A stretch of 64,000 nt of DNA from Somniosus microcephalus (lineage: Eukaryota): positions 193,068,001-193,132,000 of the forward strand of contig CM126208.1 of NCBI GenBank assembly GCA_052327205.1, given 5' to 3'. Of this stretch, positions 8,439 through 43,567 are shown in pieces. The translations under genes and the position numbers were made by a program. The notes under the pieces are model-generated. The model did not search any database and was not told the origin of the DNA. It saw nothing but the letters and a program-made list of their open reading frames with translations. The first letter of the stretch is position 1. Every line of letters begins with the position of its first letter.

Positions 8439-9798
8439 GGCCTAGAAATTCAGTTGCTTGCGCCAGCCGGTAGCGCCTTAGGAGGAGGAGATGTTGGGCG
8501 CTAGGCGGCTAGCGGCCGGGCGCAGCGCGATCTGCGCCTCTCCCCAACTTCACTAGAGATTTAGCGTCGGCGCAAAGTCTTTGCGCGCGCTCAGCTGCGC
8601 GCGCAGATCCTGACGTCATTTCATCGTGCAACGCCCTTTGTGCGCCCCAACCGGAACTTCAGTGGCGCCGCCCTTCTTTGCGCCTGGCACCCCCAGCGAC
8701 TGGTAGAGGGGAACGGTCCCCAGTCGCTGCGGGGTGCGGGGGGCGCTATTTAAAGGGGACTCCTCCTGCATTATAAGTGACAGCCATTTTGTGCCAATCC
8801 TTCTGTGTGAGAGACAAAGGCAGAGAGCTTTCTGCTTTGACTCAGCGCTCGCACAGGTACTTCTGGCTTCAGGCCAGAGCTTTGCACTTGGATTTCACTT
8901 TCAGTGCCATAGCCTTGAGTCGCCACATATACTGTAATGGGGGCTACAATGGGTGGAAACGTTGGCTTTCTGCATTGCATTCAAAGGGATCAGAGACGCC
9001 GTGAGAGAGTGCCAGTCATGGCCAGACGGAGAAGGGCCAACAGGTGTCGGCACAGGAGGCCTTACCCACCCAGGGTATACCGCCAGCAGTTCTCATATCT
9101 GAACATGTCTGAGGAGCAGTGTGTTCGGAGGCTGCTATTCAGAAGGGAGGTGGCCACTGAGATCTACCACCTGCTTCGCAGAAATCTGCAGCCACAGCTG
9201 AGGAGCAGGACGTCTCTGTCGGTGGCAGTGAAGGTGACAGTGGCTCTCAACTTCTATGCCACCGGCTCCTTCCAATCCGCTACTGGGGACATTGCCAACA
9301 TCTCCCAGTTCGCGGTACATTGCTGCATCCGACAGGTGAACAATGCCCTTTTCAGAAGGAGACGTCAGACATCTCCTTCCCCATGACCCTGGACAAGCAG
9401 CAAGAGCGTACAATGGGATTTGGAAGAATAGCGGGCTTCCCCATGGTCCAGGGCGTAGAACTGATGAACCAGCATTGGTCAGGCCTTGCTTCAGGGCTGC
9501 AGTGCATGGCAGTCAGAGAAGTCCACCCTCCCCCTTTAAGAGCTGACCGGCGCCAGAGTGTCTGCCGTCAAGCAGCAACTCGCCGCACCTGCGCTGCGCC
9601 CGCCCTCGGGGGTATCGCCCCGGACCGCCGGCTTAGCGCCTAATGATAGTCGTGCATCGCCTGTTTTAGCGCAGCAGCAACCTCTTGGGGCGATGCGACT
9701 GAATATCGGTGAAGGTGGCGCGAACTTGCGCCAGGCGCAAACTTTAGCGGCCGCCCGACTGTAGCGCCCCGAACGTGGCTATACTGAATTTCTAGGCC
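8439..9798 (+). mobile_element. Harbinger internal-deletion derivative (element A)
   Basis: Perfect 16-bp TIRs GGCCTAGAAATTCAGT and TSD TCA/TCA. The 5' part of the transposase is joined at about 9455 to a right end homologous to 24540-24867. Confidence 0.92.
8937..9455 (+). pseudogene. Truncated HARBI1-like Harbinger transposase
   Basis: VKVTVALNFYATGSFQ...ISQFAVHCCIRQV, then a frameshift, then GFGRIAGFPMVQG; stops before the first catalytic Asp. Confidence 0.9.
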
Positions 9799-13554: not shown

Positions 13555-15511
13555 AGATCCACGCTCAACGGCATGTGCCGCCACATGAACAATGTCGACC
13601 TTTCTCTTCAGCAGCACCGATGCACTCTATTTCAAAGCTGTCCGGGTCCACAGTTCCATTTCATCCTTCGACTCATCCGACGCTTCAACAAAAAACTTTT
13701 TTTCTTCCTTTCTGATGTCAAGGATCGCAAGCTTCATCAACTCTTGGACACTAACGCCCCTTCAGAACCTTCTTCCCCGTTACTTTCCTCTGATCCCATC
13801 CCTTCTTCCAATCTCACCCCCTGTCGTGTTTTCACTATCCCCTCTGACCTTCCCCTCTCTGACCCCGAACGATCAGTCCTCAGCAAAGGCCTGAGCTTCA
13901 TCCCCTTACGCCCCCATCTGAATGAATTTCGAGCTCGGCATGATGCTGAGCTCTTCTTCCATCGCCTTCGTCTCCGTGCCCACTTCTCTGGCCAGGAGTC
14001 TAACACTTTAACAGTTTCCAGTTTCCTGACCCCAACCATCTCCTTTTCACGATGGACATCCAATCCCTCTACACCTCCATCCTCCACCAGGACGGCCTTT
14101 GGGTGCTCTGTTTCTTCCTTGAACAGAGGCCCACCCAGTCCCCATCCACTACCACCATCCTCCGCCTGGCTGAACTTGTTCTCACATTCAACAACTTCTC
14201 CTTTGACTCCACTCCCTCCAAATTAAAGGTGTTGCTATGGGAACCCCCATGGGCCCTAGCTATGCCTGCCTGTTCATGGGATATGTGGAACATTCTTTGT
14301 TCCAGTCCTACTCAGGTCCCCTCCATCACCTCTTTTTCCAGTACATCGATGACTGACTGTATTGGTGCCATTTCCTGCTCTCGCCCTGAACTAGGTAAGT
14401 TCATTCACTTTACCTCCAATTTCCACCCTTCCCTCACCTTCACATGGTCCATCTCCGACTCTTCCCTTCCCTTCCTTGACTTCTCCGTCTTCATTTCTGG
14501 CGATCGGTTTTCGACAAACATCCACTACAAGCCCACCGACTCCCACAGCTACCTGGACTACACTTCCTCCCACCCCGCTTCCTGTAAGGACTCTATTCCA
14601 TTCTCCCAGTTTCTCCATCTCCGCTGCGTCTTTTCTGACGATGCCACCTTCCATACCAGTGCTTCCGACATGTCTTCCTTTTTCTTCAACCGAGGATTCC
14701 CCTCTACTGTGGTTGACATGGCCCTTGACCGTGTCCGTTCTATTTCCCGCACTTCTGCTCTCACCCCTTCCCCTCACTCCCAGAACCACGATAGGGTTCC
14801 CCTTGTCCTCACCTTTCACCCCACTAGCCTCCACATTCAACGGATCATCCTCCGCCATTTCCGCCACCTCCAACGTGATCCTACCACCAAACACATCTTC
14901 CCCTCACCTCCCCTTTCAGCATTCCGAAGGGACCACTCCCTCCGCGACACCCTGGTCCACTCCTCAAATCACCCCCAACAGCCCTTCTCCTACACCTGGC
15001 ACCTTCCCGTGCAAGCGCAGGAGATGCAACACATGCCCTTTTACCTCCTCCCTTCCCACTGTCCAGGGCCACAAACACCCCTTCCAGGTGAAACAGCGAT
15101 TTACTTGTACATCTTCCAATTTAATATACTATTGTGGCAGAGCCACTGAGGGAATCTGAACAACTGTACATAATTCCCTTTAATGATGTGTTAGCTACAG
15201 ACTAAATCTGTACCATTGTATATACTGTTTGCATGTACAGTGTGCGGCCCCTTTAAGAACGCGGGCAAACGCAATGACGTCATGCCGCTAATCACGTGAT
15301 CACCCAAACACGGGAAAAAGGTGATGACGTCATGACGCCATCCACGGGACCGCCCAAGCAGTCCTCGTGGAGCCTCCAACCTGTTAAGACCTGTATTCAT
15401 AGTTCTCTTGCATCAATCTGTTTAAACTCGTTAGTTTGACATTAAAAACCTTTTTGATTGATTGCCTGTGTCGAACTCAATCTCTAGATAGGAATTTGAC
15501 CATTCCTACAT

Positions 15512-15524
15512 TGGTGACCCCGAC
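15512..15524 (+). promoter_or_regulatory. Primer binding site, tRNA-Trp
   Basis: TGGTGACCCCGAC 1 nt downstream of the 5' LTR, complementary to the tRNA-Trp 3' end. Confidence 0.85.
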
Positions 15525-15557
15525 TTTTGTGAACGGATTTCGCAAAAGGAATGCAGC

Positions 15558-18500
15558 ATGGAGGCAAATGCCGTTTCCTTGAAGCTGCCGCAGTTCTGGG
15601 AGCAACAAGCAACCTCATGGTTCATCCAAGTTGAAGCCCAGTTCGCCCTGAGAGGCATCATTGAGGATCAGACCCGATACTTATACGTGGTCTCCGCACT
15701 CGATGGCTCTACCGCCTCGTGGATCGTCAGTCTTCTCGGGAATCCCCCAACTGACAGCAAGTATGAGACCCTCAAGGCGCGGTTGCTACAGGTTTTCGGG
15801 CTCACAAAATCAGAGTGCGCCCGTCGGCTGCTCGCTATGCCCGGGCTCGGGGACTCCAAACCTTCCGAGCTGATGAGCCAAATGCTCACACTCCTCGGCT
15901 CCGAACCAGAATGCTTTCTCTTCAGAGAGTTATTCCTCAGCCAATTACCGGAGCAAGTGCAAGCGGCCTTGGCGAGATCCGAGGTCGAAGACTGCGCAGC
16001 GCTCGCTGCCGAGGCAGACAAAATATTCGCAGTTACGCAACAGTACTGCGCTGCCATGAGGCGCCCATCCCCCACAGACGCCGCCCCAGCTCCTCAGCCC
16101 ACGGGGCTGTGCTTCTACCACACGTGGTTTGGCGTGAAGGCGAGATGTTGTCGCCCTCCCTGCAGCTTCTCTCAAAAAAAAAACAACAACTCCGTCCAAT
16201 GCAGAACGGGTCTAACGGGTGCCCCGCGGCCGCGATGGCAATGCAGGCAAGCTGCTCTTCATCACAGATACCCTCTCCGGTTGTCGGTTCCTGTGCGACA
16301 CCGGAGCACAGTGCAGCATTCTACCAGCGTCAGCTCTGGATGTACAGGCCGGGAAGCACGGCCTCCCCCTCGAAGCGGCTAATGGTGGAGCTATTCGGAT
16401 CTTCGGCAGACGGCGGGTCTAGGTGTGCTTCGGCGACCAGCGGCTTTTCTGGGAATTCGTTATGGCCAAGGTTTCGCAAGCCATTCTCGGTGCAGATTTC
16501 CTGTGCGCCAACGGCCTCCTGGTCGATGTAAGGAACCGGCGGCTGATCAACGCGGCCACGTTTCACTCTATCATTTGCCACCATAGTAACACCATGTCGC
16601 GCACCGTCTCCTGCGCTTTCCCGACTCCGAATGAGTTCGCTCGCCTGCTAGGCGAATTTCCAGACCTGACCAGGCCCACGTTCTCCTCCGCGGCCACGAA
16701 GCATGGTGTGGAACACCACATCACCACCACCGGCCCCCCGGTCCACGTGCGGGCCTGCCGCCTTGAACCTGGCAAGCTAGCGGTCGCGAAGATGGAGTTC
16801 GCTACAATGGAACGCTTAGGGATTATTCGCAGGCCGAATAGTCCCTGGTCTTCACCTCTTCACATCGTTCCAAAACCTGGCGGAGGATGGCGGCCCTGCG
16901 GCGACTATCGGCGCCTAAACGCCGCCACCACTCCTGATCGATACCCGATCCCCCACATTCAGGATTTCTCTGCCCATTTGGCAGGAAACAATTTCTTCTC
17001 CAAGGTCGACCTCGTCCGGGGCTACCACCAGGTCCCGGTGCACCCGCAGGACATCCAGAAGACCGCAGTCATCACCCCATTCGGCCTTTTTGAATTTCTG
17101 CGCATGCCTTTCGGCTTAAAGAACGCTGCCCAGGCTTTCCAACGCCTGATGTATTCCGTGCTGCGGGACCTCAACTTCATCTTCATCAATCTGGATGACA
17201 TTTTGGTCGCCAGCCCCACCAAAGAGGAGCATCTTTGCCATCTGCGCACCCTTTTTCAACGCCTCAGCCAACACGGCCTGATTATCAACCCGGCTAAGTG
17301 CCAGTTTGGCCTGCGACAAATCGATTTCCTGGGGCATCGCATCACCGCAGAGGGAGCAGTTCCCTTGCAGGCGAAGGTGGAGGCGGTGATACACTTCCCA
17401 CACCCGCAGAACAGAAAGGCTCTGCAAGAATTCCTAGGCATGGTGAACTTCTTACCACCGTTTCGTGCCTAGGGCAGCACTGCTCATGCAGCCCCTGTAC
17501 GAGGCCCTCAAGAGCAAGTCCAGCAAGGATCCGGTGGGCTGGACAGTTGACATGGACCGGGCATTCACCGACACCAAGAGCGCCTTGGCCAACGCGACCA
17601 TGCTGGTGCACCCGCTACCAGGAGCCACCATCGCCCTCACCACCGACGCGTCCGATTACGCAATCGGCGCCATTCAGGGGCAGTGGGTAAACGGGACGTG
17701 GCAGCCGTTGGCATTCTTCAGCCGTCAACTGTGGCGTAATGAGCGGGCGTACAGTACTTTCGGCAGGGAGTTGCTAGCCCTTTTTCTGGCCATCCGCCAT
17801 TTCCGGTTCTTGTTGGAAGGCCGTCCTTTCACCGCTTTCGTCAACCATAAGCCACTGACTTTTGCCATGGCCAAGACCGCCGAACCGTGGTCACCTCGAC
17901 AACAACGTCAGCTGACATACATCTCCGAATTTACCACAGATATTCAGCACGTGGCCAGTAAAGACAACCTGGTGGCAGATTGCCTCTCCCGCGCGACCGT
18001 GCATGCGGTCCAGCTGGGCATCGACTACGCCCTCATGGCAGCAGACCAAGTCTCAGACCCAGAAGTGCAGGCTTACCGCACCAACACCACTAGCCTCCAG
18101 TTGGCCGACGTCAGGTTCCATTCGGCTGGTACCACGTTGCTGTGTGACGTCTCTGTTAGGGACCCTCGCCCTATTGTGCCGGTCGCCTGGCGCCGCAAGG
18201 TGTTTGACGCCATACATGGGTTGTCACACCCAGGAATGAAGGCTTCTCAGAAGCTTATGTCATCTAAGTTCATTTGGTGGGGCATGCATAAAGATGTCCG
18301 TGACTGGGCCAACACCTGCGTGGTCTGCCAAAAGGCCAAGGTACAGCGCCACGTCAAGGCTCCATTGGCCACCTTTGCAGTTCCTGAGCGACGGTTTGAC
18401 CACGTTAAAGTGGACCTGGTAGGAGCACTTCCACCTTCCCATGGTTTTATGCACATCCTGATCATAGCAGATCACACCACCAGATGGCTGGAGGTGGTTC

Positions 18501-19374
18501 CCCTGTCATCTACTACATCGGCGGACGTGGCTAGGGTGTTCATCTCTTCATGGGTCGCCCATTTTGGAGTGCCTGCTGACATCTCTTCGGACCGGGAACC
18601 GCAGTTTTCCTCTGAACTCTGGAATGCGGTGGCTCAGCGACTCGGTGTCAAGTTACACCGCACCACAGCCTACCACCCACAAGCGAACGGTCTGTGCGAA
18701 CGTTTTCACAGATCACTTAAGGCCGCACTGAGGGCCAGCCTCCAAGACGCTGGATGGGCAGACAAGCTGTCGTGGGTCATGTTGGGCCTTCGCACGGCCC
18801 CCAAGGAAGATCTTCGCTCTTCCGCGGCAGAGCTCATTTATGGTCAGCCACTGCAAGTGCCAGAGGATTTCTTGCCAACACCAACGGAGCCATGGTCCGC
18901 CTCACGCCAGCTTATCAGTCACCAGGAAGCAGCCAGATGTTTCGCGCCGGTTCCCACATTGCATCACGGGTTTCAGGGCTCTCACGTTCCAGCGGAGCTG
19001 AACCAAGCTGACTACGTGTTCACCTGCCACGATGCTCACCAGGATCCACTCAAGCCCCCATACACTGGTCCTTTCCGCATGTTAGAGGCAGGAGACAAAA
19101 CCTTCAAGGTGGATGTCGGTGGTAAACCGGACCACATTTCGGTCGACCATTTGAAGCCGGCACACCTGGACCTCGACCGTCCCGTCGAGACTGCACAGCC
19201 ACCGAGACGAGGTCGGCCGCCCACCGTCGTCACGCCAGAACAAGTGCAACCACCCGCCAGTCCGCCCGCCGTCCAACAGCTTCCGCTTCGGGAATACAGG
19301 AGTCGTTCTGACAGGCTTGTCAGACCCCCTCACCGTTTGACTTTTTCCGTTAAAGACAATTCTGGGGGGGCGCA
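15558..19374 (+). pseudogene. gag-pol (Gag, protease, RT, RNase H, integrase) with a stop and frameshifts
   Basis: LKLPQFW gag start; CFYH...CRPPC; LCDTGA; LDDILV; TDASDYAIGA; HGLSHPG...CVVC; TTAYHPQANGLCER; PYTGPF. TAG at 16420-16422 and frameshift near 17455. Confidence 0.93.
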
Positions 19375-20194
19375 TGTGGCAGAGCCACTGAGGGACTCTG
19401 AACAACTGTACATAATTCCCTTTAACGATGTGTTAGCTACAGACTAAATCTGTACCATTGTATATACTGTTTGCATGTACAGTGTGCGGCCCCTTTAAGA
19501 GCGCGGGCAAACGCGATGACGTCATGCCGCTAATCACGTGATCACCCAAACGCGGGAAAAACGTGATGACGTCATGACGCCATCCACGGGACCGCCCAAG
19601 CAGTCCTCGTGGAGCCTCCAACCTGTTAAGACCTGTATTCATAGTTCTCTTGCATCAATCTGTTTAAACTCGTTAGTTTGACATTAAAAGCCTTTTTGAT
19701 TGATTGCCTGCGTCGAACTCAATCTCTAGATAGGAATTTGACCATACCTACACTGTATTCGCTGCTCACGATGCGGTCTCCTCTACATTGGGGAGACCAA
19801 ATGCAGATTGGGCGACCGCTTTGCGGAACACCTCCGTTCAGTCCGTAAGGGTGACCCTGAGCTTCCGGTCGCCTGTCACTTTAATTCTCCACTTCACTCC
19901 CACTCTGATCTCTCTGTCCTCGGCCTATTACATTGTTCTAATGAAGCTCAACGTAAGCTCGAGGAACAGCAGCTCATCTTTTGATTAGGCACTTTACAGC
20001 CTGCCGGACTCAACATTGAGTTCAACAATTTCAGATAATAATCCCTGCCCCCATTTTTCATGCAGTATGATTTTGCCATTCCCATTTGCAACATTTTCAC
20101 AGCATGTTCTTTCAATTCCTTCCTCCCCTCCTAAACCACACCCCCCCCACCTGTCTCTGCACCTGCTTAATATCTGTTACATTTCCAGCTTTTT

Positions 20195-20236: not shown

Positions 20237-20883
20237 TTTCTCTCTCCACGGATGCTCAAATCAAAAAATCAAATCAACTTTTATTGTCATTGTTAGTGCA
20301 CAAGTGCAGTACAACGAAATGTAGGCTTGCAGCTCCCAAGAGTATACATTTAGATTAAGACATTTAAACATTCAACATACATAGGCCTAGAAATTCAGTG
20401 GGTTGCGCCAGCCGCTAACGCCATAAAAGGGCTATATTTCCGGCGCTAGACACTTAGCGCCTGAACGCAGTCCGATCTGCGCCGATGCCCAAATTCAGTT
20501 GACATTTAGCGCCGGCGCAAAGTGTTTGCGCCCGCTCAGGTGCGCGCGCAGCTTATGACGTCATATCGTCGCGCAACGCTGTTTGTGCGCCCCAAACCGG
20601 AAATTCAGTGGCGCCCGCCCAATGTGGGCGTGGCGCTGCTAAGAACTGTGAGGTGGAACGCAAAAGAGGCCCTGTGGGCCTCAGGGAGCGCAAATTAAAG
20701 GGCACTTACACTGACCTATAAAGCCCAGCCATTTTGCTGCAATGACTTTACTGCTTTGGATTTCTGGACAGAGACCAAGGGACAAAGGTTACAGATTTGG
20801 GACAACATAGGAGAGGTATTTTTGGCTTCTGGCCAGTGCTTTGACATTTGATTCATTGTGATTTATCTGTTCTCAACTTTATT

Positions 20884-22029
20884 ATGGGGGCTGTATGGGG
20901 GGCCAACCCTCAGTTGCAGCATTATGTGCGAAGGGCTCGCAGACGCTGTGAGAAAGGGCCAGCCATGCCGAGACGCAGAGGGGCCATCAGGCGTCGGCAA
21001 CGTAGGCCTTACCCACTCAGGCAATACCGGCAGCAGGTGTCCTATCTCACCATGACTGCGGCGCATTGTGTGAAGAGGCTGCGCTTCAGAAGGGAGGTGG
21101 TTGCAGAGATCTGCCAGCTGCTTCACACAGATCTGCGTCCACAGCTGATGTGCAGGACGTCTCTCTCGGTGGAAGTGAAGGTCACGGTGGCTCTGAACTT
21201 TTATGCAAGCGGCTCCTTCCAAGCCGTTGCTGCGGACATAGCGAACATCTCCCAGTTCGCCGCGCATCGCTGCATCCGGCAGGTCACCGATGCACTTTAC
21301 GCGAGGAGACACCAATTCATCTCCTTCCCCATGACCCGACAGAGGCAGGAGCAGTGTGCAGTCGGATTTGGCAGGATCGCGGGCTTCCCCATGGTGCAGG
21401 GCGCCATTGACTGCACGCATGTGGCTATGCGGGCACCTATCCACAATGCCGAGGATTACCGCAACCGGAAGGGCTACCATTCCCTAAATGTACAGCTGGT
21501 GTGTGACCACAGGCAGCGCATCCTAGCTGTCAATGCCCACTTCCCAGGAAGCAGCCACGATGCATTTATCCTGCGCCAGACTACTGTGGCTGACATGTTC
21601 CAGGCACAGCCTCCACCAAGGGGATGGCTTATCGGGGACAAGGGCTACCCTTTGTGTACATGGCTCATGACCCTGCTCCGCGCGCCCAGGACCCCAGCGG
21701 AGGAGGCATACAACGAAAGCCATCAAGCCACAAGGAACATCATCGAGCAAACGATAGGCGTCCTCAAGTAACGGTTCCGCTGCCTGGATCGTTCCGGAGG
21801 ATCTCTTCAGTATTCGCCGGATAGAGTCTCCCAGTTCGTCGTCGTGTGCTGCATGCTGCACAACCTGGCTATCCGCAGGACTCAGGCACTGCCACCTGGC
21901 ATTGCACCACCACCTCAGGAGGACGAGCAGGAGGAGGAGGAGGAGGAGGAGGAGGAGGAGGACCAGCCCAGGAGGGAGCGACAAGGGCCAAGGGCCGTCC
22001 GCCGGGGACTTATTGATCGACACTTCTAG
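20884..22029 (+). pseudogene. Harbinger DDE transposase with a single nonsense codon
   Basis: GAIDCTH, GSSHDA, GDKGY, IEQTIG and CCMLHN all in one frame; TAA at 21769-21771 replaces Q of LKQRF. Confidence 0.93.
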
Positions 22030-24506: not shown

Positions 24507-26808
24507 TGCTCCAGGTGCTATTTTGGCACACCAGTAGTGCGGAGGCCTAGCTGCAGGGCTCCAGTATGCAGGGCGTGGCAGCAGTCAAAGTTGACCCTTC
24601 CCCCTTTAAGAGCTGGCCGGCGTCAGAGTGTCTGCTGTCAATCAAAACATGACCGCACCTGCGCTGCGCCCGGCTTCGGCGTTATTAGGCCGCATCGCCG
24701 GCTTAGCGCCGGAACACAGCATTTCAACGCCAGTTTCAGCGCTCGGCCAAACTTAGGGCCAACTCTACTGAATTTCGGCGATGTGGCCTACACTTTCCGG
24801 CGGCCGCTAACTTTAGCGAGCGCCCGACTTTAGCGCCCCAAAAGTGTCCAGACTGAATTTCTAGGCCATAATGTATTCAGCTTGTAATACATTAACATAA
24901 ACATAATCATAATAAAGTGCATTGGCAGATGTGCAGGCTTTAGAGTTTATTTGTGGAGTTCAGTAGGATGACAGCCCTGGGAAAGAAGCTGTTCCTAAAT
25001 CTGGTCGTACGGGTGCGAATGCATCTGTAGCGTCTCCCAGATGGCAGGAGGGCGAACAGACTGTGGCTGGGGTGGGTAGGGTCTTTGATGATGGACCGTG
25101 ACCTCCGTAAACAGCGTTTCTGGTATATGTGCTCTATGGTCAGTAGCCGGGTGCCGGTAATGCGTTGGGCAGTTTTGACTACCCGCTGCAGGGCTTTCCG
25201 GTCATAGTAGCTACAGCTGCCATACCATACTGTGATAGTTTGTCAGGATGCTCTCTATTGTGCAGCGGTAAAAGTTAGAGAGGATCAGGGGTGACAGGTT
25301 ACATCCCTTCAGCCTCCTTAGGAAATATAGGCGCTGCTGGGCCTTCTTCACCAGAGAGGAGGTATTGAGGGACCAGGAGAGGTCTTCCGTGATGTGGACT
25401 CCGAGGAACTTAAAGCTGTCCACCCTTTCCACCACAGCCCCATTGATGTGGATGTGGGTGTGACTTCCGCCTTTAGACTTCCTGAAGTTCACAATGATTT
25501 CTTTGGTTTTCTTGATGTTAAGGGCCATGTTGTTATCGGCGCACCACTTCACGAGATGCTGGACCTCCTCCCTGTAGGCTGACTCATCGTTGTTGGTGAT
25601 CTGGCCTACTACCGTGATATCATCTGCAAACTTGATGATGGTGTTGGAACCATGAACAGCCACACAGTCGTGGGTGAAGAGGGAGTAGAGGAGGGGGCTC
25701 AGCACACATCCTTGTGGGGCCCCCATGTTCAGGGTCGGGGGGGGGGGAGGTGTGGTTACCTAATTTGACAGACTGGGGTCTGTTTGTTAGGAAGTCCAGG
25801 GTCCAGTTGCAGAGGGAAGTGTTCAGGCCAAGAGTTTGGAGTTTGGTGGCCAGCTTGTTGGGGACGATAGTGTTGAATGCTGAGCTGTAGTCTATGAACA
25901 GCATTCTGATGTAGGTCTCCTTACCATCTAAGTGATTCAGTGCCGAGTGTAGAGCAGTTGTGATTGCATCCTCCGTTGATCTGTTTGCACGATAGGCAAA
26001 CTGGTGTTGGTCAAGAGAGGCGGGAACACTGGCTTTGATGTGAGCCAGGACCAGTCTCTCGAAACACTTCATTATGATGGGTGTGAGTGCGACAGTTCGA
26101 TAGTCGTTCAGGCACGTCACAGCTGTTTGTTTTGGCACAGGAATAATGGTAGCGGTCTTGAAGCATGTAGGGTCTACTGCCTGGGCCAATGACAGATTGA
26201 AGATGGCGGTGAAGACATCAGCCAGCTGATCAGCACATTCCTTGAGTACCCGTCCAGGGATGCTATCCGGTCCAGCAGCCTTTCGTGTGTTCACTCCGCG
26301 TAGAACACTCTTTACATCGGAGGTCGACAGAGCGAGCACCTGGTCTTCCAGGGGTGGCAAGCCTTTGGTAGCCGGCTCCCTGTTGTCCCTGTCGAAGCGA
26401 GCGTAGAAGTTGTTAAGCTCCTCCGGAAGGGAGGCATCGCTAACCGGGGGGCTGGTGTTTTTGCCCTTGTAGTCAGTGATGGACTGGATGCCTTGCCACA
26501 TGCGCCGGGGGTCCGAGTTGTTGTGGAAATGATCCTCTATCTGCAGTGTCTGTTTCCTTTTGGCAGTCCTGATACCCTTTTTTAGGTTGGTCCTAGCTGC
26601 ACTGTAAGCCGCCGCGTCGCCAGATTTAAATGCTGCGTCGCGTGCTTTCAACTGCCTGGCCTGCTGAGTATATCCAGCATTTTCTGTTGTTATTTCAAAA
26701 TGTACATGTTTGGTCTTTGCACTCATTGTTGCCTTGACCAGCTTAGGGGTTGCGGGATGGTTTCATTCAGGTTGTTTGAATGGCAGAAGCCATTCCCTCA
26801 GAGGGGGC

Positions 26809-27952
26809 CTAGAAGCGACTTGCTATGAGCCTTTGACGGACGGCCCTTCCACTTTGTGCCTCCCTCCCACCTTGGTGCTGCTGATGATCATCCTCCTCAT
26901 CTTCCTCCTCCTCCTCCTCCTCTGCTGGTGCTCCAATGTCTGGTGGCATTGGCTGGGTCCTGAGGATTGCAAGGTTATGCAGCATACAGCACACAACAAC
27001 GAAGTGGAAGACTCGCTCAGGCGAGTACTGCAGGCCTCCTCCAGAATGGTCCAGACAGCGGAACCGTTGCTTGAGCACGCCGATTGTGTGCTCAATGATG
27101 TTCCTGGTAGCTTAATGGCTCTCGTTGTATCGTAGCTCAGCAGGGGTGCTGGGCGAACGGAGCGGTGTCATCAGCCAGGTACACAGAGGATATCCCTTGT
27201 CCCCGAGAAGCCAACCTCCTAGGTGATGCGGTGCCTGGAGAAGGTCTGCAACAGAAGTCTGGCGCAGGATGAAGGCATCGTGGCTGCTGCCTGGAAAGTG
27301 GGCATTGACAGCGAGTATCAGCGGTCTGTGGTCACAGACCAACTGGACGTTTAAGGAATGGAAGTCCTTTCGGTTGCGGAAATCCTCGGCATTCTCTTGC
27401 GGCGCCCGCAAAGCCACATGTGTGCAGTCAATGGCGCCCTGCACCATGGGGAAGCCCGCTATCATCGCAAAGCCCATTGCGCATTCTTGCTGCTTGGCCG
27501 GGGTCATGGAGAAAGAGATGTACTCTCGTCTCCTTTTAAAGAGGGCATTTGTTACCTGACGGATGCAGCAATGCACCGCCAACTGGGAGATATTGGTGAT
27601 GTCCCCAGTAGCTGATTGAAATGAGCCGGTGGCATAAAAGCTGAGAGCCACTATTATCTTCACTGCCACTGACAGAGACATCCTGCTCCTCAGTTGAGGC
27701 TGCAGATCTGGCTGAAGCAGATGGCAGAGCTCAGTGACCACCTGCTTGCTGAATCGCAGCCTTCGCAAACACTGCTCCTCAGACATATTAATGTAGGAGA
27801 ACTGTTGGCGAGAAACCCTGGGAGGGTAAGGTCTCCTGTACCGAGGCCTGTTGGCCCTCCTCCGTCTGGCCATGATTGCCACACTCTCTCCGTCTCTGTG
27901 CCCTCCGAATGTGATGGAGAAGGACGACGTTCCCATTCATTGCAGCCCCCAT
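26809..27952 (-). pseudogene. Harbinger DDE transposase of element B with a single nonsense codon
   Basis: GAIDCTH, GDKGY, IEHTIG and CCMLHN in one frame; TAA at 27112-27114 replaces Q of SHQATR; small frameshift in the N-terminal extension. Confidence 0.93.
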
Positions 27953-29990: not shown

Positions 29991-31962
29991 TGATGTCGTT
30001 TTCAGGAAAAATGTTTGTATTGCAAGATGATTTTACAATTGAGAAGACACCAGCGAGGCTATCACAACTGTTCCACAATCCATACCTTGTTTGATTCCCA
30101 TTTAAACTGAACCTTTAGTGCATCAGCACATCCAAAGAAACAGAAAATCCTTGTAACGGCCATTTAAGTCGTCAGTTCAGACACCGAAAGAAAGCTTATT
30201 GTTGCAGTAAAGCTATGCAGAACTCAGGAATAGCTTTATTGACCACATACAACACTTAAAATGAATTTGAAATAACAATTAAAAATTAAAATGCTTTACA
30301 TCTGCTCACCGCAATTCATGGGTAAAATTAAAGTATTTTCCCTTGATTCTTAAGTCTAAATGTCCTTTTTGGAGGCAATGAAACATTAAAAATGACTGAT
30401 TTCTGATTGGCAGTCAGTAATTCCAATGATTGCTTTTGCTACCAATTGTTGATTAATATAATTAATGCTGGCATGTGACCTTTTGTTGCGATCTTTACAG
30501 GTCTTGAAATACTTGCAGCCCCATTGTGACCAGACAAAACAATTTGTCTGTAGTACGGTGAGGATTGAAATGACATCTGCCTTATGATTTTACTTTCCAG
30601 TGTGCGGTACAAATAGAATACAGGATAAGAAGATGTGGGATACAATCTTTATCGCACTTGTGGCACTTGCTGTAGAATTTGTGTCTCCCAATCATGTCAA
30701 TTCACTTGCAAGATATCCAAGGTATCCTACCACTCCTGGATACGTGGCATCCATATCTCAAATAGTATTTCAAATTCCAATGTAATAGCCATCAAGAACA
30801 GCTTCTAAGAATTGATTTGTTCTCCATGGGTATTCTCAAATGTGCAACTGGAATCATTGTACGATGTCAACAAGAACCAAAGCATTTTCAAACTTGCACG
30901 GTTAAGTAAACTCCATTATAGTACTGTACGCAGGAAGTTTTAGACTATACTGGATCTTTATTTCAGTTCATTCATTAGAAGCTGTTCTTGTTGCTTAAGG
31001 AGAAATTTTCAATATAAATGTAGGAAGAGATTTTCCTTGAGTCTGTGCGCAGGTTCACTGGATGATGTGGGCACAGGAAATATTGTAAAATCAAGCAGTT
31101 GTGTGCACCTTGCTTGAAAGATGTGCAATATTTTGAAGGTATTTTGAAAATTATACAATGGAAAATCTACATTTGACGTGAACTCTTATTAAAGAAGTAA
31201 ATATTATTTTTAAATACTACTTCCCTAATATTACATATAACCTACTGAAGAGGTGAATCCCTACTTTAAGGTTAAGTTTTGTATAAAAATTAAACTCAAA
31301 TATCTGATCTCAGCCACAGCAGCTGTACGCTCCTGCAATTTGTCTCAGTGCAGTTTGGTTAAGGAAAGAAAAATAATTGACCAGGGCTCTGTTAAGTATG
31401 TGTATTGTATTGAACAATTAACACAAAGACTTAAACGTATAACTCAAACAGGTCTTTACTGGTTGGAGGTAGGGACTATACATAGGTCTTTACTTCATGC
31501 CCACAGGCGGGAACTGAGGGGAGATCAGTACCCACAGTACTATTTATACCCCTATGGCCAGGAGTGGTACTGCGTATCACTACGCCCAACAAGTAGTGCA
31601 GTCCTGTCCATAGGTTCAAAGTAGCACACATATTACATACACAACATTCCTCCCTTCCTAGCTTTACAGTCATCTCCCCATTTAACATAACGTAATAACA
31701 TATATACATATATAACTTCAGGTTTACATAACAGAATAACATAGATACATAGATAACTTCATGTCAAAACAGATCACAGATTCAGTCTCTGCGGAAAACA
31801 GTTCACAGATTCAATCTCTGTGGTGGAGTCGGTTCACGTTGCTGGAGTGACTCATTCAATAGTCCTTCCATGGATTTAACAGTTTGAACTTCCGAACTGA
31901 ATTGGCTCCGTTCGGAGGGACCACGTGTGTGATCTGGTAGAGGTAATAATGGTTCAGATGGG

Positions 31963-34161
31963 TCATCTTCTGTTTCGACTTTTCCTTTTCTGCTTCTTGG
32001 AGACTCTCTGGGCTCCACTGTCAGCTGCCAGCTGCATGCGCAGTTCCTCCTTCTCTCCCTCCTTTTTCCGTAGTAGAGCCACCTTCTCCCGATGTTCCGT
32101 AGACTTTCGGTGCTCCTCCATGATTTCTGTATGGTGGGAGTCGAAGTTACAAGTTGGGCAGGACAGGACATAGTAATATTCGGTGTCGTCCCGATCTAGG
32201 CCAGCGAGAGGGTCTTCTATTTCCTCCATACCCAGCTGGGCGTTAGCCAGCTTTTGTTCCAAGTCCAGACATCTTTCCTGAAGAGACTTCTTCATGCGTA
32301 CCTCTTCATCCAGCTTTTTCTGGGCTTTCAGCAAGTCGTTTACTAATGACCTCATTTGAGATTTTACTACTTCAACTTCTTTTGGAGATTGATTGATCGG
32401 ACTATTCAATCCCTCTACCGGAGCAGCTGTTTCAGCGGTCTGTTGTTCTACGTTGACGTGAGTCAGCGTACTTTTGGCATCCAAGGGCTGCTCTGTTGCA
32501 GTCATCTCAGTCTGTGTTGCCACCTCAGCTCTTCCAATAACCTTTGAGAGCTCCGAACCCCTTTCGTTTGAATATTGAAGTTCGTGTTCAAGTTTTTCCC
32601 ATTTCAGAGTCCTGTCCTTCAGCATATGCAGGAGTTGGCTGACCGTTAACTCCTCTGACATCAGACGTTTTGTGTGCTCCTGCTCCATTTTCTCCATCAG
32701 CTGCTTCTGTTGTCTTTCCAGATTCTCCAACTCTATATCAAAGAACTCTTTCGTTGCATTCAACTCTTGCTCACAACGGCGAAGCATTTGTTCTAATTGC
32801 TGTTGTAGTTTGAAATGGAGTTGAGTTCGAGCCCGGTGTCCCTCAGAAATGGGCACATCAGTAGACTTGCCAGACTCAGAATCCACAGTTAAACTATGTT
32901 GTTGTTGCTCAGTGGAATTCTGTGCTGAAACTTTGTCTTTTGCACCCGAGTTGGGCTTACCATCATCCGTTCCAGAGTCTGGGCCGACTATCTTCACCGA
33001 GTTCTCACTCGTTATTGTTTGTAGGAAATGCCAGTCCATATTCATTTTCCTAATCCACTCCCGTCCTAGTAGTGGAGAACCTCCTTCAGATATCACATAT
33101 AAGTCCATTATTTGACTGTCTTCGCCCTTGTGGACCACTGCAACCTCTATTTTCCCGATGGGGTACACTCTTTGCCCCGTGTATGTTTTCAATATAATCC
33201 CCGTATCCTGTAGGGGAATATGTTGGAATAACTTTCCGTAATCTTTCTTATTTATGACTGTCAATGCCGATCCAGTGTCCAATTCCAGTTTTACTTGGAC
33301 TCCTTCTATCTGAAGAGTGACCCAAATTGTCTGGAGGTCTGCACCCTTACCAGCGTTGAGTACTCTTAAGCTAGCCAGTTCATTACAGCTTAAGCTAGCC
33401 AGTTCATTACTGCTAGCGTCTGAATCGGACTCCTGTTCGGTCACCTTGTGTACCTTTGCGTATTTTCCTTGCGGTGACTTCTTGTTGCTGGTCTTCTTCC
33501 CTGACCTGCATACTCTAGCTATATGTCCAAGCCTACCACAAGTTCTACATTCTTGGTTTTTAAACCAACACTGGTTCTGATCATGCGTTGTCTTTCCACA
33601 ACGATAACATTTGCCAGAACTCACACCCAATTTGTGTGCACTGAGCTCCGGTGACCGTAGCTGCATTACTGCCGTGCCTCTCGCTGCGGCTTCGTGTGCT
33701 GCTGCCATAGTGACTGCCTTCTCAAGCGTCAGCTCATTCTCCTCTAGCAGTCGCTTTTGTGTATCCTGTTTAAATAAACCACACACAAATTTGTCTCGAA
33801 GTGCCTCTGTCAGTCCCGTTCCAAACTGGCAATATTTCGCTAATTTACGCAATTCCAGCAAATAATCAGCATTGCTTTCATGCTGTAGCTGCCTTCTGTC
33901 GTAAAATTTAAATCGTTCCGCTAGCATCAGCGGCGTGGGGTTTAGATGATCTTTCAGGACAGTAACAATCTCATCGAACGTCTTATCCGCCGGTTCATCT
34001 GGTGATAACAGGTGTTTCAATTGCCCGTATGTCTTCGCACCCATTAAATTTAATAATGTTAGAGCTTTATCTTGGTCATGAATTTTATTGGCCTTACAAT
34101 AATTTTTTACTCTTTCAACATATATGGCCCAATCTTCGAGGTCACTATCAAAGGTGCTCAT
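31963..34161 (-). CDS. Gag-protease fusion with STK10/SLK-like coiled coil, optineurin-like segment and U1-type zinc finger (732 aa)
   Basis: Uninterrupted ORF. Mag gag ([20 protein letters not shown]), two CCHC knuckles aa185-218, LDTGS and LLGREW protease motifs, then non-pol coiled-coil segments. Confidence 0.9.
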
Positions 34162-34747
34162 ATTCCCGTGTTTAGGTATTGTAGATTTGCAATTTCTCAG
34201 ATTTTATTTTGTTTACTTGTTATCAAAGATGGCGGCTTCCCGCTCTTGCCGTCGTCCTCCGCCCACAAAATGGCGGTTTTCCCGCGCTTGGCGGTCTTCA
34301 CCCGTCCCCCGACGCCGTCTCCCTTCAGCCCCCGAGTGCGGCCCTTATCTTTGGTTCCGATCGCTGGCCCACGCTGCGCCTCGCACTTGAAGCGGCTCCC
34401 GGCCTCTGGCTCACCCGCTCGCGCGGCTCTTGCTCGCTCCCTCCCGGGCTCTGGCTTACCCGCTCGCGCGTTTCACCGCGGCTCTTATCAGGGATTGCGA
34501 TCGCCCTTATCTTCTCCAACTTCCCCAGCCCTGTCTTTGCAGCCGACACTGCACGGCTTACCCCACCACCTAGGTTGAACAAGGAAACTGCAGAAAGACT
34601 TCTGTCAGTCGCTGGAAGCTGTCAGGATGTTTGCTGCACTCCAGTGCTCAGTCGCTGATGGAGGCTTCAGAGTCCTAAAGCCTGTCGCTTCTAGTGGGGT
34701 GGTGATGTTTGAAACCTCTCTTCAACTGCCGCAGGGTAAGAACCTGA

Positions 34748-34757
34748 CTCGTCGCCA
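34748..34757 (-). promoter_or_regulatory. Primer binding site, tRNA-Ser(GCU)
   Basis: TGGCGACGAG 1 nt after the 5' LTR. Confidence 0.8.
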
Positions 34758-35357
34758 GTGTTAAGTATGTGTATTGTATTGAACAATTAACACAAAGACT
34801 TAAACGTATAACTCAAACAGGTCTTTACTGGTTGGAGGTAGGGACTATACATAGGTCTTTACTTCATGCCCACAGGCGGGAACTGAGGGGAGATCAGTAC
34901 CCACAGTACTATTTATACCCCTATGGCCAGGAGTGGTACTGCGTATCACTACGCCCAACAAGTAGTGCAGTCCTGTCCATAGGTTCAAAGTAGCACACAT
35001 ATTACATACACAACAGGCTCCATCTCCTAATCACCAAACGGCAATCCTGTTCAAAATACTTGGGGAAAGGATCAGCCACGATACCTCTAATGGTCAAAAC
35101 GCATGCTGATACACAACATCTAACCTTGCCTATGAATAATGGCCACTTGGACGAGGTACCTGTTACCCACTGAATTGTATCCCAGCACATACTCATGACA
35201 CACATTAAAGAGATATGGAGAAAGAAAGGAGGAAGAAGGGAAAAATTAGTGGAAAAAGGAGGACAAAATAGAATTGTAGAATTGACTGAAACTGTATGTC
35301 TCAGTTAATAGTTTTTATATTTTATACTTTCATGCACAGGACAGTTTTCTGTATAGT

Positions 35358-36589: not shown

Positions 36590-38125
36590 AGGATCCCAAA
36601 TTCTCAGAGGGTTGGGGAATAGAACTTGGGAAAATAAAATGGACAACAATATTGGCAAACAATGATATAGAACAGCAATGGGAAACATTTAAAACAGGGT
36701 TCAACAGAGTCCAAGAAAAATATATTCCGCTAAAAGACAAGAATAAGCTAAACACTAATGAGACACCAAAGGATGAATAAAGACATAAGGGAAACATTGA
36801 GGGTAAGGAAAGAGGCATACACTAAATAAGTGGACAGCAGGGGAGCATGACAAGGGAGAATACGATGAAATTAGGAGAGAAGCCAAAAAAACAATTAGGA
36901 TAGCAAAGAGGAACTATGAAATTAAATTATCAAGGAACATAAAACAAAATAGTAAAATATTCTACAGGCACATAAATAAAAAAGGAAAGTCGGGATGGGA
37001 ATGGTCAGGATAAAATCGCAGGCAGCGATAGCGAAATGACAGAAATAGTAAATAATTACTTTGCTTCAGTATTTGCCAGGGAAACAGATCAGGTGGACAT
37101 GACATCGGAAGATGAGATTAGAAATGATATAATCACATTTAAAATAAAAAGGGGAAAAATATTAAATAAATTAATCAAACTCAAAGACGATAAAACTACT
37201 GGTCCGGATGGATTACATTCAGACATTTTAAAAGAATCTAGGGAAGAGATTGCAGAGGCACTATTACACATTTTTAATAATTCATTAGATAAAGGTGTAT
37301 TGCCAGAGGACTGGTGGATAGCTAACGTAATACATATATTTATGAAGGGAGATAGAACATGCCCAGGGAACTATGGACCAATCAGCTTAATGTCGGTGGT
37401 AGGAAAAATTGTGGAATACCTACTAAAAGAAAAAAATAGAAGAATATCTAGAAACCAAAAATATAATATAATAAATAGTCAGCATGGATTTCAAAATGGA
37501 AAGTCTTGCTTGACCAACCACATTGAATTCTTTGAAGAGGTAACAAAGAGAATAGACAAGGGAATGCAGTAGATGTAATTTATTTAGATTTCCAAAAGGC
37601 CTTCGATAAGGTACCACATAATAGACTAATGAATAAGGTCAGAGAATCCAGAGTCAGGTGACAAGTAGCAGAATGGATAGCAAGCTGGCTTCAAGACAGA
37701 AAGCAGAGAGTAGGGATAAAGAGTAGCTATTCAGAGTGGCAGAAGGTAGAAAATGGGGTCCCACAAGAATTAGTGCTGGAACCACTGTTGTTCATAATTT
37801 ATATTAATGATTTAGACTTTGGAATCAAAAACACAATCTCTAAATTTGCGGATGACACCAAATTGGGGGGATTGTCAATCGTGAGGAGGACCACAACAAA
37901 TTACAAGAAAACATTAGAGACTGGTGAGAATGTGGAACTCACTACCACAGGGAGTGGTTGAAGCAAATAGTATAGATGCATTTAAGGGGAGGCTAGATAA
38001 GCATATGAGGGAGAAGGGAATAGAGGGTTATGCTGATAGAGTTAGATGAGGAAAGATGGGAGGAGGCTCAAGTGGCGCATAAACGCTAGCATGGCCTGTT
38101 ACTGTGCTGTGTATCCTATGTAATA
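36590..38125 (+). mobile_element. CR1 LINE ORF2 fragment with internal deletion and 3' UTR
   Basis: [63 protein letters not shown]; stops and frameshifts. Confidence 0.9.
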
Positions 38126-42720: not shown

Positions 42721-42783
42721 GTGGAGAAATGCATAAAGACACAGCTTATATAGTCAGAGAATCATGTTAGATGTTTACAGGTA

Positions 42784-43567
42784 CAGGTTTACAGGACACC
42801 TACAGACACTGAAAGACGCCCTTGTAAGAACGGGATATGACGCTCGACTCGTCAATCGACAGTTCCGACGGGCCACAGCGAAAAATCGCATAGACCTCCT
42901 CAGAAGACAAACACGGGACACAACCAACAGAGTACCATTCGTCATCCAGTACTTCCCCGGAGCGGAGAAACTACGCCATGTTCTTCGCAGCCTTCAACAT
43001 GTCATTGATGATGATGAACACCTCGCTAAGGCCATCCCCACGCCTCCACTACTTGCTTTCAAACAGCCACCTAACCTCAAACAGACCATCGTTCGCAGCA
43101 AATTACCCAGCTTTCAGGAGAACAGCGACCACGACACCACACAACCCTGCCACAGCAACCTCTGCAAGACATGCCAGATCATCAACACAGATACCATCAT
43201 CACACGTGAGGACACCACCCACCAGGTACATGGTACATACTCATGTGACTCGGCCAACGTTGTCTACCTCATACGTTGCAGGAAAGGATGCCCCGGAGCA
43301 TGGTACATCGGCGAGACCATGCAGACACTGCAACAACGGATGAACGGACACCACGCAACAATCACCAGGCAGGAGTGTTCCCTCCCAGTCGGGGAACACT
43401 TCAGCAGTCAAGGACATTCAGCCTCCGATCTTCGGGTAAGCATTTTCCAAGGCGGCCTTCGAGACACACGACAACGCAAAATCGTCGAGCAGAAACTGAT
43501 AGCCAAGTTCCGCACCCATGAGGACGGCCTCAACCGAGATCTTGGGTTCATGTCACGCTACATGTAA
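42784..43567 (+). pseudogene. Penelope RT thumb / GIY-YIG endonuclease C-terminal fragment
   Basis: Open frame ending GLNRDLGFMSRYM; N-terminus missing. Confidence 0.85.

Follow-up and report, generated by a model that had tools for sequence, protein, structure and literature searches.

A non-autonomous Gypsy lineage in Somniosus microcephalus probably founded by one-turn capture of a circular STK10 RNA

Results

The window that we analysed, 64,000 nucleotides of Somniosus microcephalus contig CM126208.1 (assembly GCA_052327205.1, forward-strand positions 193,068,001 to 193,132,000), contains at 31390–35015 on the minus strand a Gypsy retrotransposon that carries, in place of pol, an in-frame chimera of pieces from STK10, optineurin and DNAJC21, all three of them host genes. 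This copy belongs to subfamily C of a non-autonomous lineage that was probably built when reverse transcriptase (RT) captured exactly one turn of a back-spliced circular RNA (circRNA) of STK10 and, by serial template switching, went on to acquire further host sequence. A first-pass annotation of the sequence had already proposed a non-autonomous Gypsy element with captured pieces of cellular mRNA in place of pol; three host pieces are indeed present, and protein comparison of the C-terminal half returned host genes and not an ordinary retrotransposon domain, but the first piece appears to derive from a circle and not from an ordinary mRNA.

The STK10 cargo of subfamily A

The case for a circle comes from subfamily A, whose cargo is 98–99% identical to host STK10 and runs from the middle of exon 9 through exons 10, 11 and 12 into exon 8 and then the first part of exon 9 (exon numbers are those that we take the human gene to have, and exon edges come from the shark host sequence). 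The donor end of exon 12 joins the acceptor start of exon 8 to the nucleotide, at ends that in the host are flanked by GT and AG, and this junction was found in 29 of 30 A loci and in 855 exact genomic copies (control, 0). Subfamily A therefore has the exact non-colinear exon–exon junction that Dong et al. (2016) treat as high-confidence evidence. The host gene (on G000:C8, 120 kb read) has a single collinear copy of exons 8–12, which together comprise 1,245 nt, or 415 codons, and are free of stops. Of 30 A loci examined, 25 have both of two sites encoding L-D-E, and in 23 of these the sites are separated by 1,245 nt; because this spacing equals the length of the circle, the A cargo would be exactly one turn. 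All three switch sites encode L-D-E in frame, so that Gag-protease (Gag-PR), circle and pol tail form one open reading frame (ORF), which spans 848 codons in 7 of 10 full-length copies.

The pol-bearing parent of subfamily A is still in the genome. Searching for the A anchor without following STK10 identified 17 genomic places, and all 10 of the anchors that we fetched continue into pol, with 93–100% identity to A up to the junction. The idea that such anchors are empty pre-capture elements was ruled out, since they run into pol and represent the parent. Two of four fetched parental 3′ ends match A at 97–98% from the exit site, one of them on into the long terminal repeat (LTR); the other two match at 88–90%. 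Parent copies, which were read at both ends, pass from protease into RT-side pol at one end and have the integrase-side tail at the other. The start of parental pol shares TATTGGATGAG with STK10 exon 9 (an 11-nt match), the end of parental pol shares T-GATGAG with the same exon 9 site, and the proposed entry jump onto the circle lies at a short match (TAGATGAG / TGGATGAG). What is informative here is that one position of the circle was used twice, not the length of the match. A separate helper search using a fish RT piece, in which 30 of 150 scored loci were fetched, recovered other families with 63–72% identity to the window's Gag-PR, the sole exception being one neighbouring A-type gag.

From these junctions we propose a three-step origin. 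A single-ORF Gypsy parent would have packaged a back-spliced circle of STK10 exons 8–12. While RT was copying the 3′ end of the element, a short match would have let it switch to the circle; after exactly one turn, it would have returned to the start of pol through the 11-nt match at the same circle site. Synthesis would have stopped after one turn probably because RNase H had by then destroyed the template behind RT; we read the junctions directly from the copies and infer the route between them. Optineurin would then have entered subfamily B and DNAJC21 subfamily D, with frame-keeping deletions giving E and C, a series whose stages can be read in the copies themselves. Finally, the subfamilies would have kept their LTR ends, primer-binding site (PBS), polypurine tract (PPT) and own Gag-PR while borrowing RT and integrase from pol-bearing relatives, and they probably acquired fresh Gag-PR by recombining with such helpers.

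Three host genes in the window's copy

The window's element encodes a single Gag-protease-cargo ORF of 732 amino acids (31963–34161; all features of the element lie on the minus strand), in which residues 385–499 are STK10 and residues 497–648 are optineurin (72% amino-acid identity, E 9e-51); the best protein matches of the cargo are shark optineurin and STK10. The STK10 part begins with two pieces of exon 9 that form a linker (32840–33010, 86–87% nucleotide identity to the host) and continues with spliced exons 11–12, the start of the PKK coiled coil (32663–32844, 91–93%). The Pfam model PKK (PF12474) scored above its cut-off in this ORF (residues 452–502, E 1e-7). The coiled-coil segment of optineurin at 32219–32670 consists of four spliced host exons covering approximately residues 222–384 of the shark protein and is 81–92% identical to those exons on G000:C17 (80 kb read). 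Taken together, the STK10 and optineurin pieces match separate host exons at 81–93% nucleotide identity with introns missing; as in LTR-mediated retrocopies, intronless exons replace the internal ORF, with microsimilarity at the switches.

Around one exon junction of the host optineurin gene on G000:C17 (loci L103–L105, exons for approximately residues 218–326), the frame is anomalous in two places and a few substitutions are odd, whereas the frame of the element copies and of other sharks is uninterrupted there; either an assembly error or a damaged host gene would account for these features.

The last part of the cargo, residues 649–732 (31970–32218), is a JAZ-type zinc finger (C-x2-C-x12-H-x5-H, residues 668–690) followed by a basic tail. 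This piece alone is too diverged to reveal its source, and DNAJC21 was recognised because less diverged sister copies existed: the corresponding piece of intermediate copy L165 reached 83% identity at best (E 4.5e-16), nearly all of the best 120 of its 327 matches carry the DNAJC21 name, and the zf-C2H2_jaz Pfam model exceeded its cut-off in copy L170. The window's own piece is 43% identical to DNAJC21, whose four zinc ligands it retains in full, as well as the tail AQRVSK, and the host DNAJC21 gene was located on G000:C1. Other searches were uninformative: a PDB sequence search with the cargo gave 0 matches, an Atlas search with the C-terminal 88 residues returned only generic zinc fingers with scores of 0.86, and a representative-library search with the same residues gave four weak matches, none of which named the source.

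The first-pass annotation had all junctions in frame, and most are; the last is the exception, lying beyond the stop of the ORF. There the end of STK10 exon 8 and the beginning of exon 9 persist untranslated at 31851–31971 (85–87% to the host exons), followed by a remnant of the parental pol C-terminal tail (..PPQRLNL*) at 31769–31855 (ORF 31803–32171) that matches the 3′ end of parental pol. Because it lies downstream of exons 11–12, the exon 8/9 remnant preserves the permuted order, and we regard it as a relic of the captured circle.

Architecture of the element

Upstream of the cargo, the ORF contains two CCHC zinc knuckles (33508–33609; residues 185–198 and 205–218) and an aspartic protease (33037–33321; DTGS at residue 295, LLGR at residue 364), each recognised by its motifs and by a Pfam model scoring below the curated cut-off. 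The ORF contained no YxDD motif and matched no Pfam model for RT, RNase H or integrase, in agreement with the first-pass reading. The ends of the element were also as first described. Perfect 5-bp target-site duplications (TSDs) of GGCTC, read from the sequence at 31385–31389 and 35016–35020, flank a 3′ LTR (31390–31646) and a 5′ LTR (34759–35015, found by self-comparison) that are 100% identical over 257 nt and end in TG..CA. A PPT (31647–31664) and a PBS (TGGCGACGAG, 34748–34757) adjoin them, and a GC-rich 5′ leader at 34180–34747 holds internal repeat D4. The PBS and the LTR termini (TGT..ACTTAACA) are common to subfamilies A and B, and LTR ends, PBS and PPT are common to A, B and C. We take the primer to be tRNA-Ser; ARAGORN found no tRNAs across the window.

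These are the hallmarks of a Ty3/Gypsy LTR element, and intact cis signals, the loss of RT and integrase, and dispersed copies with TSDs of their own mark it as non-autonomous. Comparison of its Gag-PR found 53 single-ORF Gypsy polyproteins of ~1,300 residues ('K02A2.6-like'), of which the best 15 are 42–47% identical to it; the element shares with these relatives a 5-bp TSD and short LTRs, and differs from them in that cargo replaces RT, RNase H and integrase. We presume that the element belongs to the Mag clade, for which we take a single gag-pol ORF with CCHC knuckles to be characteristic: two knuckles are present, the nearest relatives are single polyproteins, and the subfamily A ORF spans gag start to pol stop. 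A 24-bp tandem duplication that had been offered as evidence for selection on the cargo is real (33365–33412), but it sits in the Gag-protease linker, where it is uninformative about the cargo, and is absent from subfamily B and E copies.

Later subfamilies

In subfamily B, the back-splice region has given way to six optineurin exons, and there is microhomology on either side of them; D gained the DNAJC21 zinc-finger piece, and E and C arose with frame-keeping deletions. All four end in a K/R-rich tail that comes from two different sources. Copies of B and D carry DSFVEIRM, deleted in E and C, which we take to be the LC3-binding motif of optineurin.

The optineurin piece of B (L061:1722–2600) begins ~8 nt into one exon and ends a few nt from the end of another; because both limits fall so near exon edges, an origin from a circle of six exons is also conceivable, and the piece may have come from one. 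In copy L173, protease is joined directly to optineurin without the STK10 exon 9–12 part. Among copies L165, L168, L170 and L163, D copies do not read the basic stretch of DNAJC21 in its own frame and, via two different deletions, continue as far as the pol tail; E, C and L168 read this stretch in the DNAJC21 frame and stop early. The tail is basic either way.

Copy number, age and expression

The first-pass annotation had raised the possibilities of an assembly chimera and of a single copy. Searching with the whole element, we found that 37 of 37 scored matches were full length with 99–100% identity, and 29 of 30 fetched subfamily C copies had a 5-bp TSD of their own. Exact genomic matches to the C protease-end 24-mer numbered 3,760, matches to the optineurin–DNAJC21 junction with at most two mismatches 8,731, and matches to an STK10 exon-11 22-mer that marks the whole lineage (present in 106 of 107 loci tested) 10,666; each reversed control gave 0. 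All 60 loci fetched from STK10 and optineurin searches were fused to Gag-PR and intronless. Cargo elements L145, L149, L155, L164, L089, L042 and L046 lie in or beside repeats, including related Gypsy gag or pol, and a nesting preference is possible.

Calling the window's copy very young, as had been done, overstates its case. Identical LTRs occur in 13 of 30 C copies, the mean pairwise distance among 26 copies is 0.41%, and the window's copy has 7 private substitutions in a range of 2–9. In 27 of 30 C copies the ORF is 738 codons long, starting six codons further upstream (it is broken in two others), and the window's copy lacks this upstream start, hence its 732 residues. Its private substitutions and missing start indicate a typical and not an especially young copy, and cargo words occur under four organism labels. 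Specifically, at least half of the cargo's words were present in 12 of 24 sequencing runs listed, from six studies with organism labels A–D, although one of the 12 may be the source of the assembly itself; RNA runs were not among the listed holders of these words.

The family is transcribed, as the first-pass annotation had suggested checking. In two RNA runs, both of organism label B, the element drew 10,253 records out of 16.7 million and 10,565 out of 14.4 million, which gave depth in every one of its 30 bins; these reads report on the family and not on the window's locus, and on transcription and not on protein. Run X23 was strongly strand-biased (for example, 792 vs 35), which would correspond to the sense strand if the library was of the usual kind, and X24 was unbiased. 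A contig of run X11 spans the STK10–optineurin junction. About half of the X23 and X24 reads have linked differences at 32240–32452, in the optineurin segment, as expected of what we read as a second expressed subfamily close to C.

Selection on the cargo

Gag-PR is conserved, the ratio of nonsynonymous to synonymous rates (dN/dS) between C and B being 0.29 (confidence interval 0.21–0.38). Comparing 245 cargo codons with the host genes gave 0.51–0.64 (three copies, two settings), with upper limits of 0.84–1.07, and Fisher tests for the window's copy gave p 0.012–0.031; optineurin values for C came from an alignment allowing for the host frame anomalies, and B-versus-optineurin comparisons were not used. 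The earlier claim that the cargo is under selection thus holds for its open frame, whereas amino-acid constraint is modest and borderline. Four junctions and approximately five cargo deletions on the way to C (75 or 93, 69, 258, 60 and 30 nt) all keep the frame, for which the naive chance is 5e-5, a figure that would be less striking were in-register events favoured by microhomology. One frame change stands apart from these, that at the DNAJC21 tail between D and E/C. The open frame therefore looks selected. Singleton changes among 27 C copies look neutral (ratios of 0.64–1.34).

The zinc finger has changed at about four times the nonsynonymous rate of the other cargo (28/95 vs 50/591, p 1e-7) with no synonymous excess (p 0.57), and its dN/dS above 1 was not significant (2.0, p 0.16; 3.3, p 0.11; 42–84 codons). 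Synonymous distance between C and B was 0.65 in Gag-PR and 0.145 in the cargo (p 4e-14), and a Gag-PR distance so far above that of the cargo suggests that the backbone has been exchanged with helpers.

Other elements in the window

At 15492–19447 (+) lies an unrelated Gypsy element with a DUF7041 Gag, RT, RNase H and integrase in separate frames. A DDE_Tnp_4 transposase at 20845–21771 (+), presumably of the Harbinger type, has similar ORFs at 8919–9386 (+) and 27112–27936 (−) and is accompanied by related fragments and GC-rich companion ORFs. A non-LTR retroelement fragment occupies 25211–26762 (−), with RVT_1 at 25623–26762, and three further non-LTR fragments without Pfam matches lie at 36976–37920 (+), 14004–15149 (+) and 42737–43567 (+); these three we take to be CR1-like or Penelope-like.

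Discussion

Our account of a one-turn capture followed by serial switching has to be weighed against several observations that count against it or narrow it. The STK10 donor, putatively a back-spliced circle, is known here from its DNA copies and was not seen as RNA. The back-splice junction is gone from the window's own copy, having been replaced by optineurin, and only the permuted exon order remains; the circular origin of this copy consequently rests on its descent from A. Because 0.8 shared 11-mers are expected by chance, microhomology of the length found at the switch is unremarkable. For A, a candidate for the autonomous partner envisaged in the first-pass annotation is the pol-bearing parent; no pol-bearing element was found with the exact 24-nt protease-end marker of C, and the 4 of 3,760 that differ at the tested places look from their letters like indel variants. 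The A and B loci were the top protein matches and are hence biased toward open frames, some copies and settings give cargo dN/dS intervals that extend to 1.0, and the organism label of both RNA runs may not be that of the host species.

As to what the cargo does, we lean slightly toward its being in-frame filler, which would keep translation going almost as far as the 3′ end of the RNA and yield a soluble coiled-coil polyprotein under modest constraint. A less probable alternative, with the same origin, is that the element depends on the cargo for a specific job: as a protease dimerisation module or particle scaffold, the coiled coils would replace the lost RT and integrase, and the zinc finger and basic tail would serve, and still be adapting to, RNA binding or nuclear import. 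Every piece kept is a coiled coil, a linker or a zinc finger, the four zinc ligands survive at 43% identity to DNAJC21, nonsynonymous change in the finger is fast without synonymous excess, and a K/R-rich tail was obtained from two sources in B, D, E and C. Against such a job, the elevated dN/dS of the finger falls short of significance over few codons and may reflect relaxed constraint, the lineage has lost most of its cargo through deletions, and copies of the L173 type lack the STK10 part at the protease junction. We hold as similarly tentative a broader version in which the endless frame of the circle was fixed as a functional polyprotein domain, and exon shuffling produced a selected coiled-coil/zinc-finger protein that drove the expansion to ~10,000 copies; the job of that protein would lie in the life cycle of the element or against host defence, the two taken jointly being no better than tentative.

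It is improbable that the cargo acts on the host, either as an optineurin/STK10 decoy blunting autophagy or innate sensing or as a domesticated product. Abundant transcripts would fit such a role, as would DSFVEIRM in B and D if it binds LC3, but the motif was deleted in E and C, the captured pieces exclude what we take to be the kinase, TBK1-binding and ubiquitin-binding regions, singleton changes in C look neutral as in a selfish family, and no fixed single copy was identified.

Slightly less probable again is that the permuted STK10 came from a linear RNA with repeated exons, made by trans-splicing or from a genomic tandem duplication. An 8-12-8-12 transcript would yield the same junction and homology sites 1,245 nt apart, and non-colinear junctions can have other sources than circles (Dong et al., 2016; PMC4897178). 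Duplicated exons are, however, absent from the 120 kb read at the host locus, and a circle whose template is destroyed behind RT explains both jumps at one site. Back-splicing is, moreover, by far the commoner source of such junctions. We give virtually no credence to an assembly chimera or a single neutral retrocopy, given the thousands of dispersed copies with separate TSDs, the 12 runs from six studies that contain at least half of the cargo's words, and the X11 contig across the STK10–optineurin junction.

Capture by one-turn switching would extend what is known of LTR-mediated retrocopies in metazoans, for which microsimilarity at capture, multi-gene chimeras and secondary spread are described in the main text of Tan et al. 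(2016; PMC5131818). The shark lineage resembles those retrocopies in having spliced host RNA in place of the internal ORF, microsimilarity at switch points, chimeras, sense transcription and further non-autonomous rounds. It differs from the examples presented there, which have one or a few insertion sites, in being amplified ~10,000-fold with at least five structural subfamilies, and in having as its donor what appears to be a back-spliced circle, copied for exactly one turn and in frame with an intact Gag-PR; neither 'circular' nor 'shark' occurs in that main text. Maize Bs1, as described in the same text, is likewise an LTR element with fused pieces of three host genes and switch points common to its copies, but it is a plant element of one to five copies for which no circular donor is described there. 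Pseudogenes derived from circRNAs are also known, for example 33 LTR-flanked copies of circRFWD2 in mouse, whose mechanism was called 'mysterious' (Dong et al., 2016; PMC4897178). Those copies share with the shark family the reversal of exon order at the back-splice, the association with LTRs and the presence of multiple copies; the shark family adds a parent, both switch points, a full turn, an open frame and far more copies.

The first-pass annotation had likened the element to gag-onc transducing retroviruses. Acutely transforming retroviruses of this kind depend on helpers and carry Gag-fused host sequence in place of pol, as does the shark element. Unlike them, it is a Gypsy element without envelope or sign of infection, and its cargo fragments are catalytically empty; the ORF listing includes no env-sized ORF in the element, and its Gag-PR relatives are Gypsy polyproteins. 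We found no literature report of in-frame, one-turn circRNA capture amplified to such a scale, in a search that reached few subscription papers.

If our reading is right, the lineage is a nucleotide-level record of circRNA capture by an LTR element, with one turn, a common entry and exit site, and a parent still in the genome. It would provide a step-by-step example of how a circular RNA is written into a genome and spread, addressing the mechanism that Dong et al. (PMC4897178) left open, and fossil evidence that a specific circRNA was present where insertions can become heritable. It also predicts a signature that can be searched for in any genome: cargo whose length equals that of a circle, flanked by a short direct repeat. 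In annotations of shark genomes, the copies will mimic huge expansions of STK10, optineurin and DNAJC21 and inflate RNA counts. For the family itself, thousands of copies spread over a dated succession of subfamilies make it possible to separate selection for an open frame from selection for a chimeric protein.

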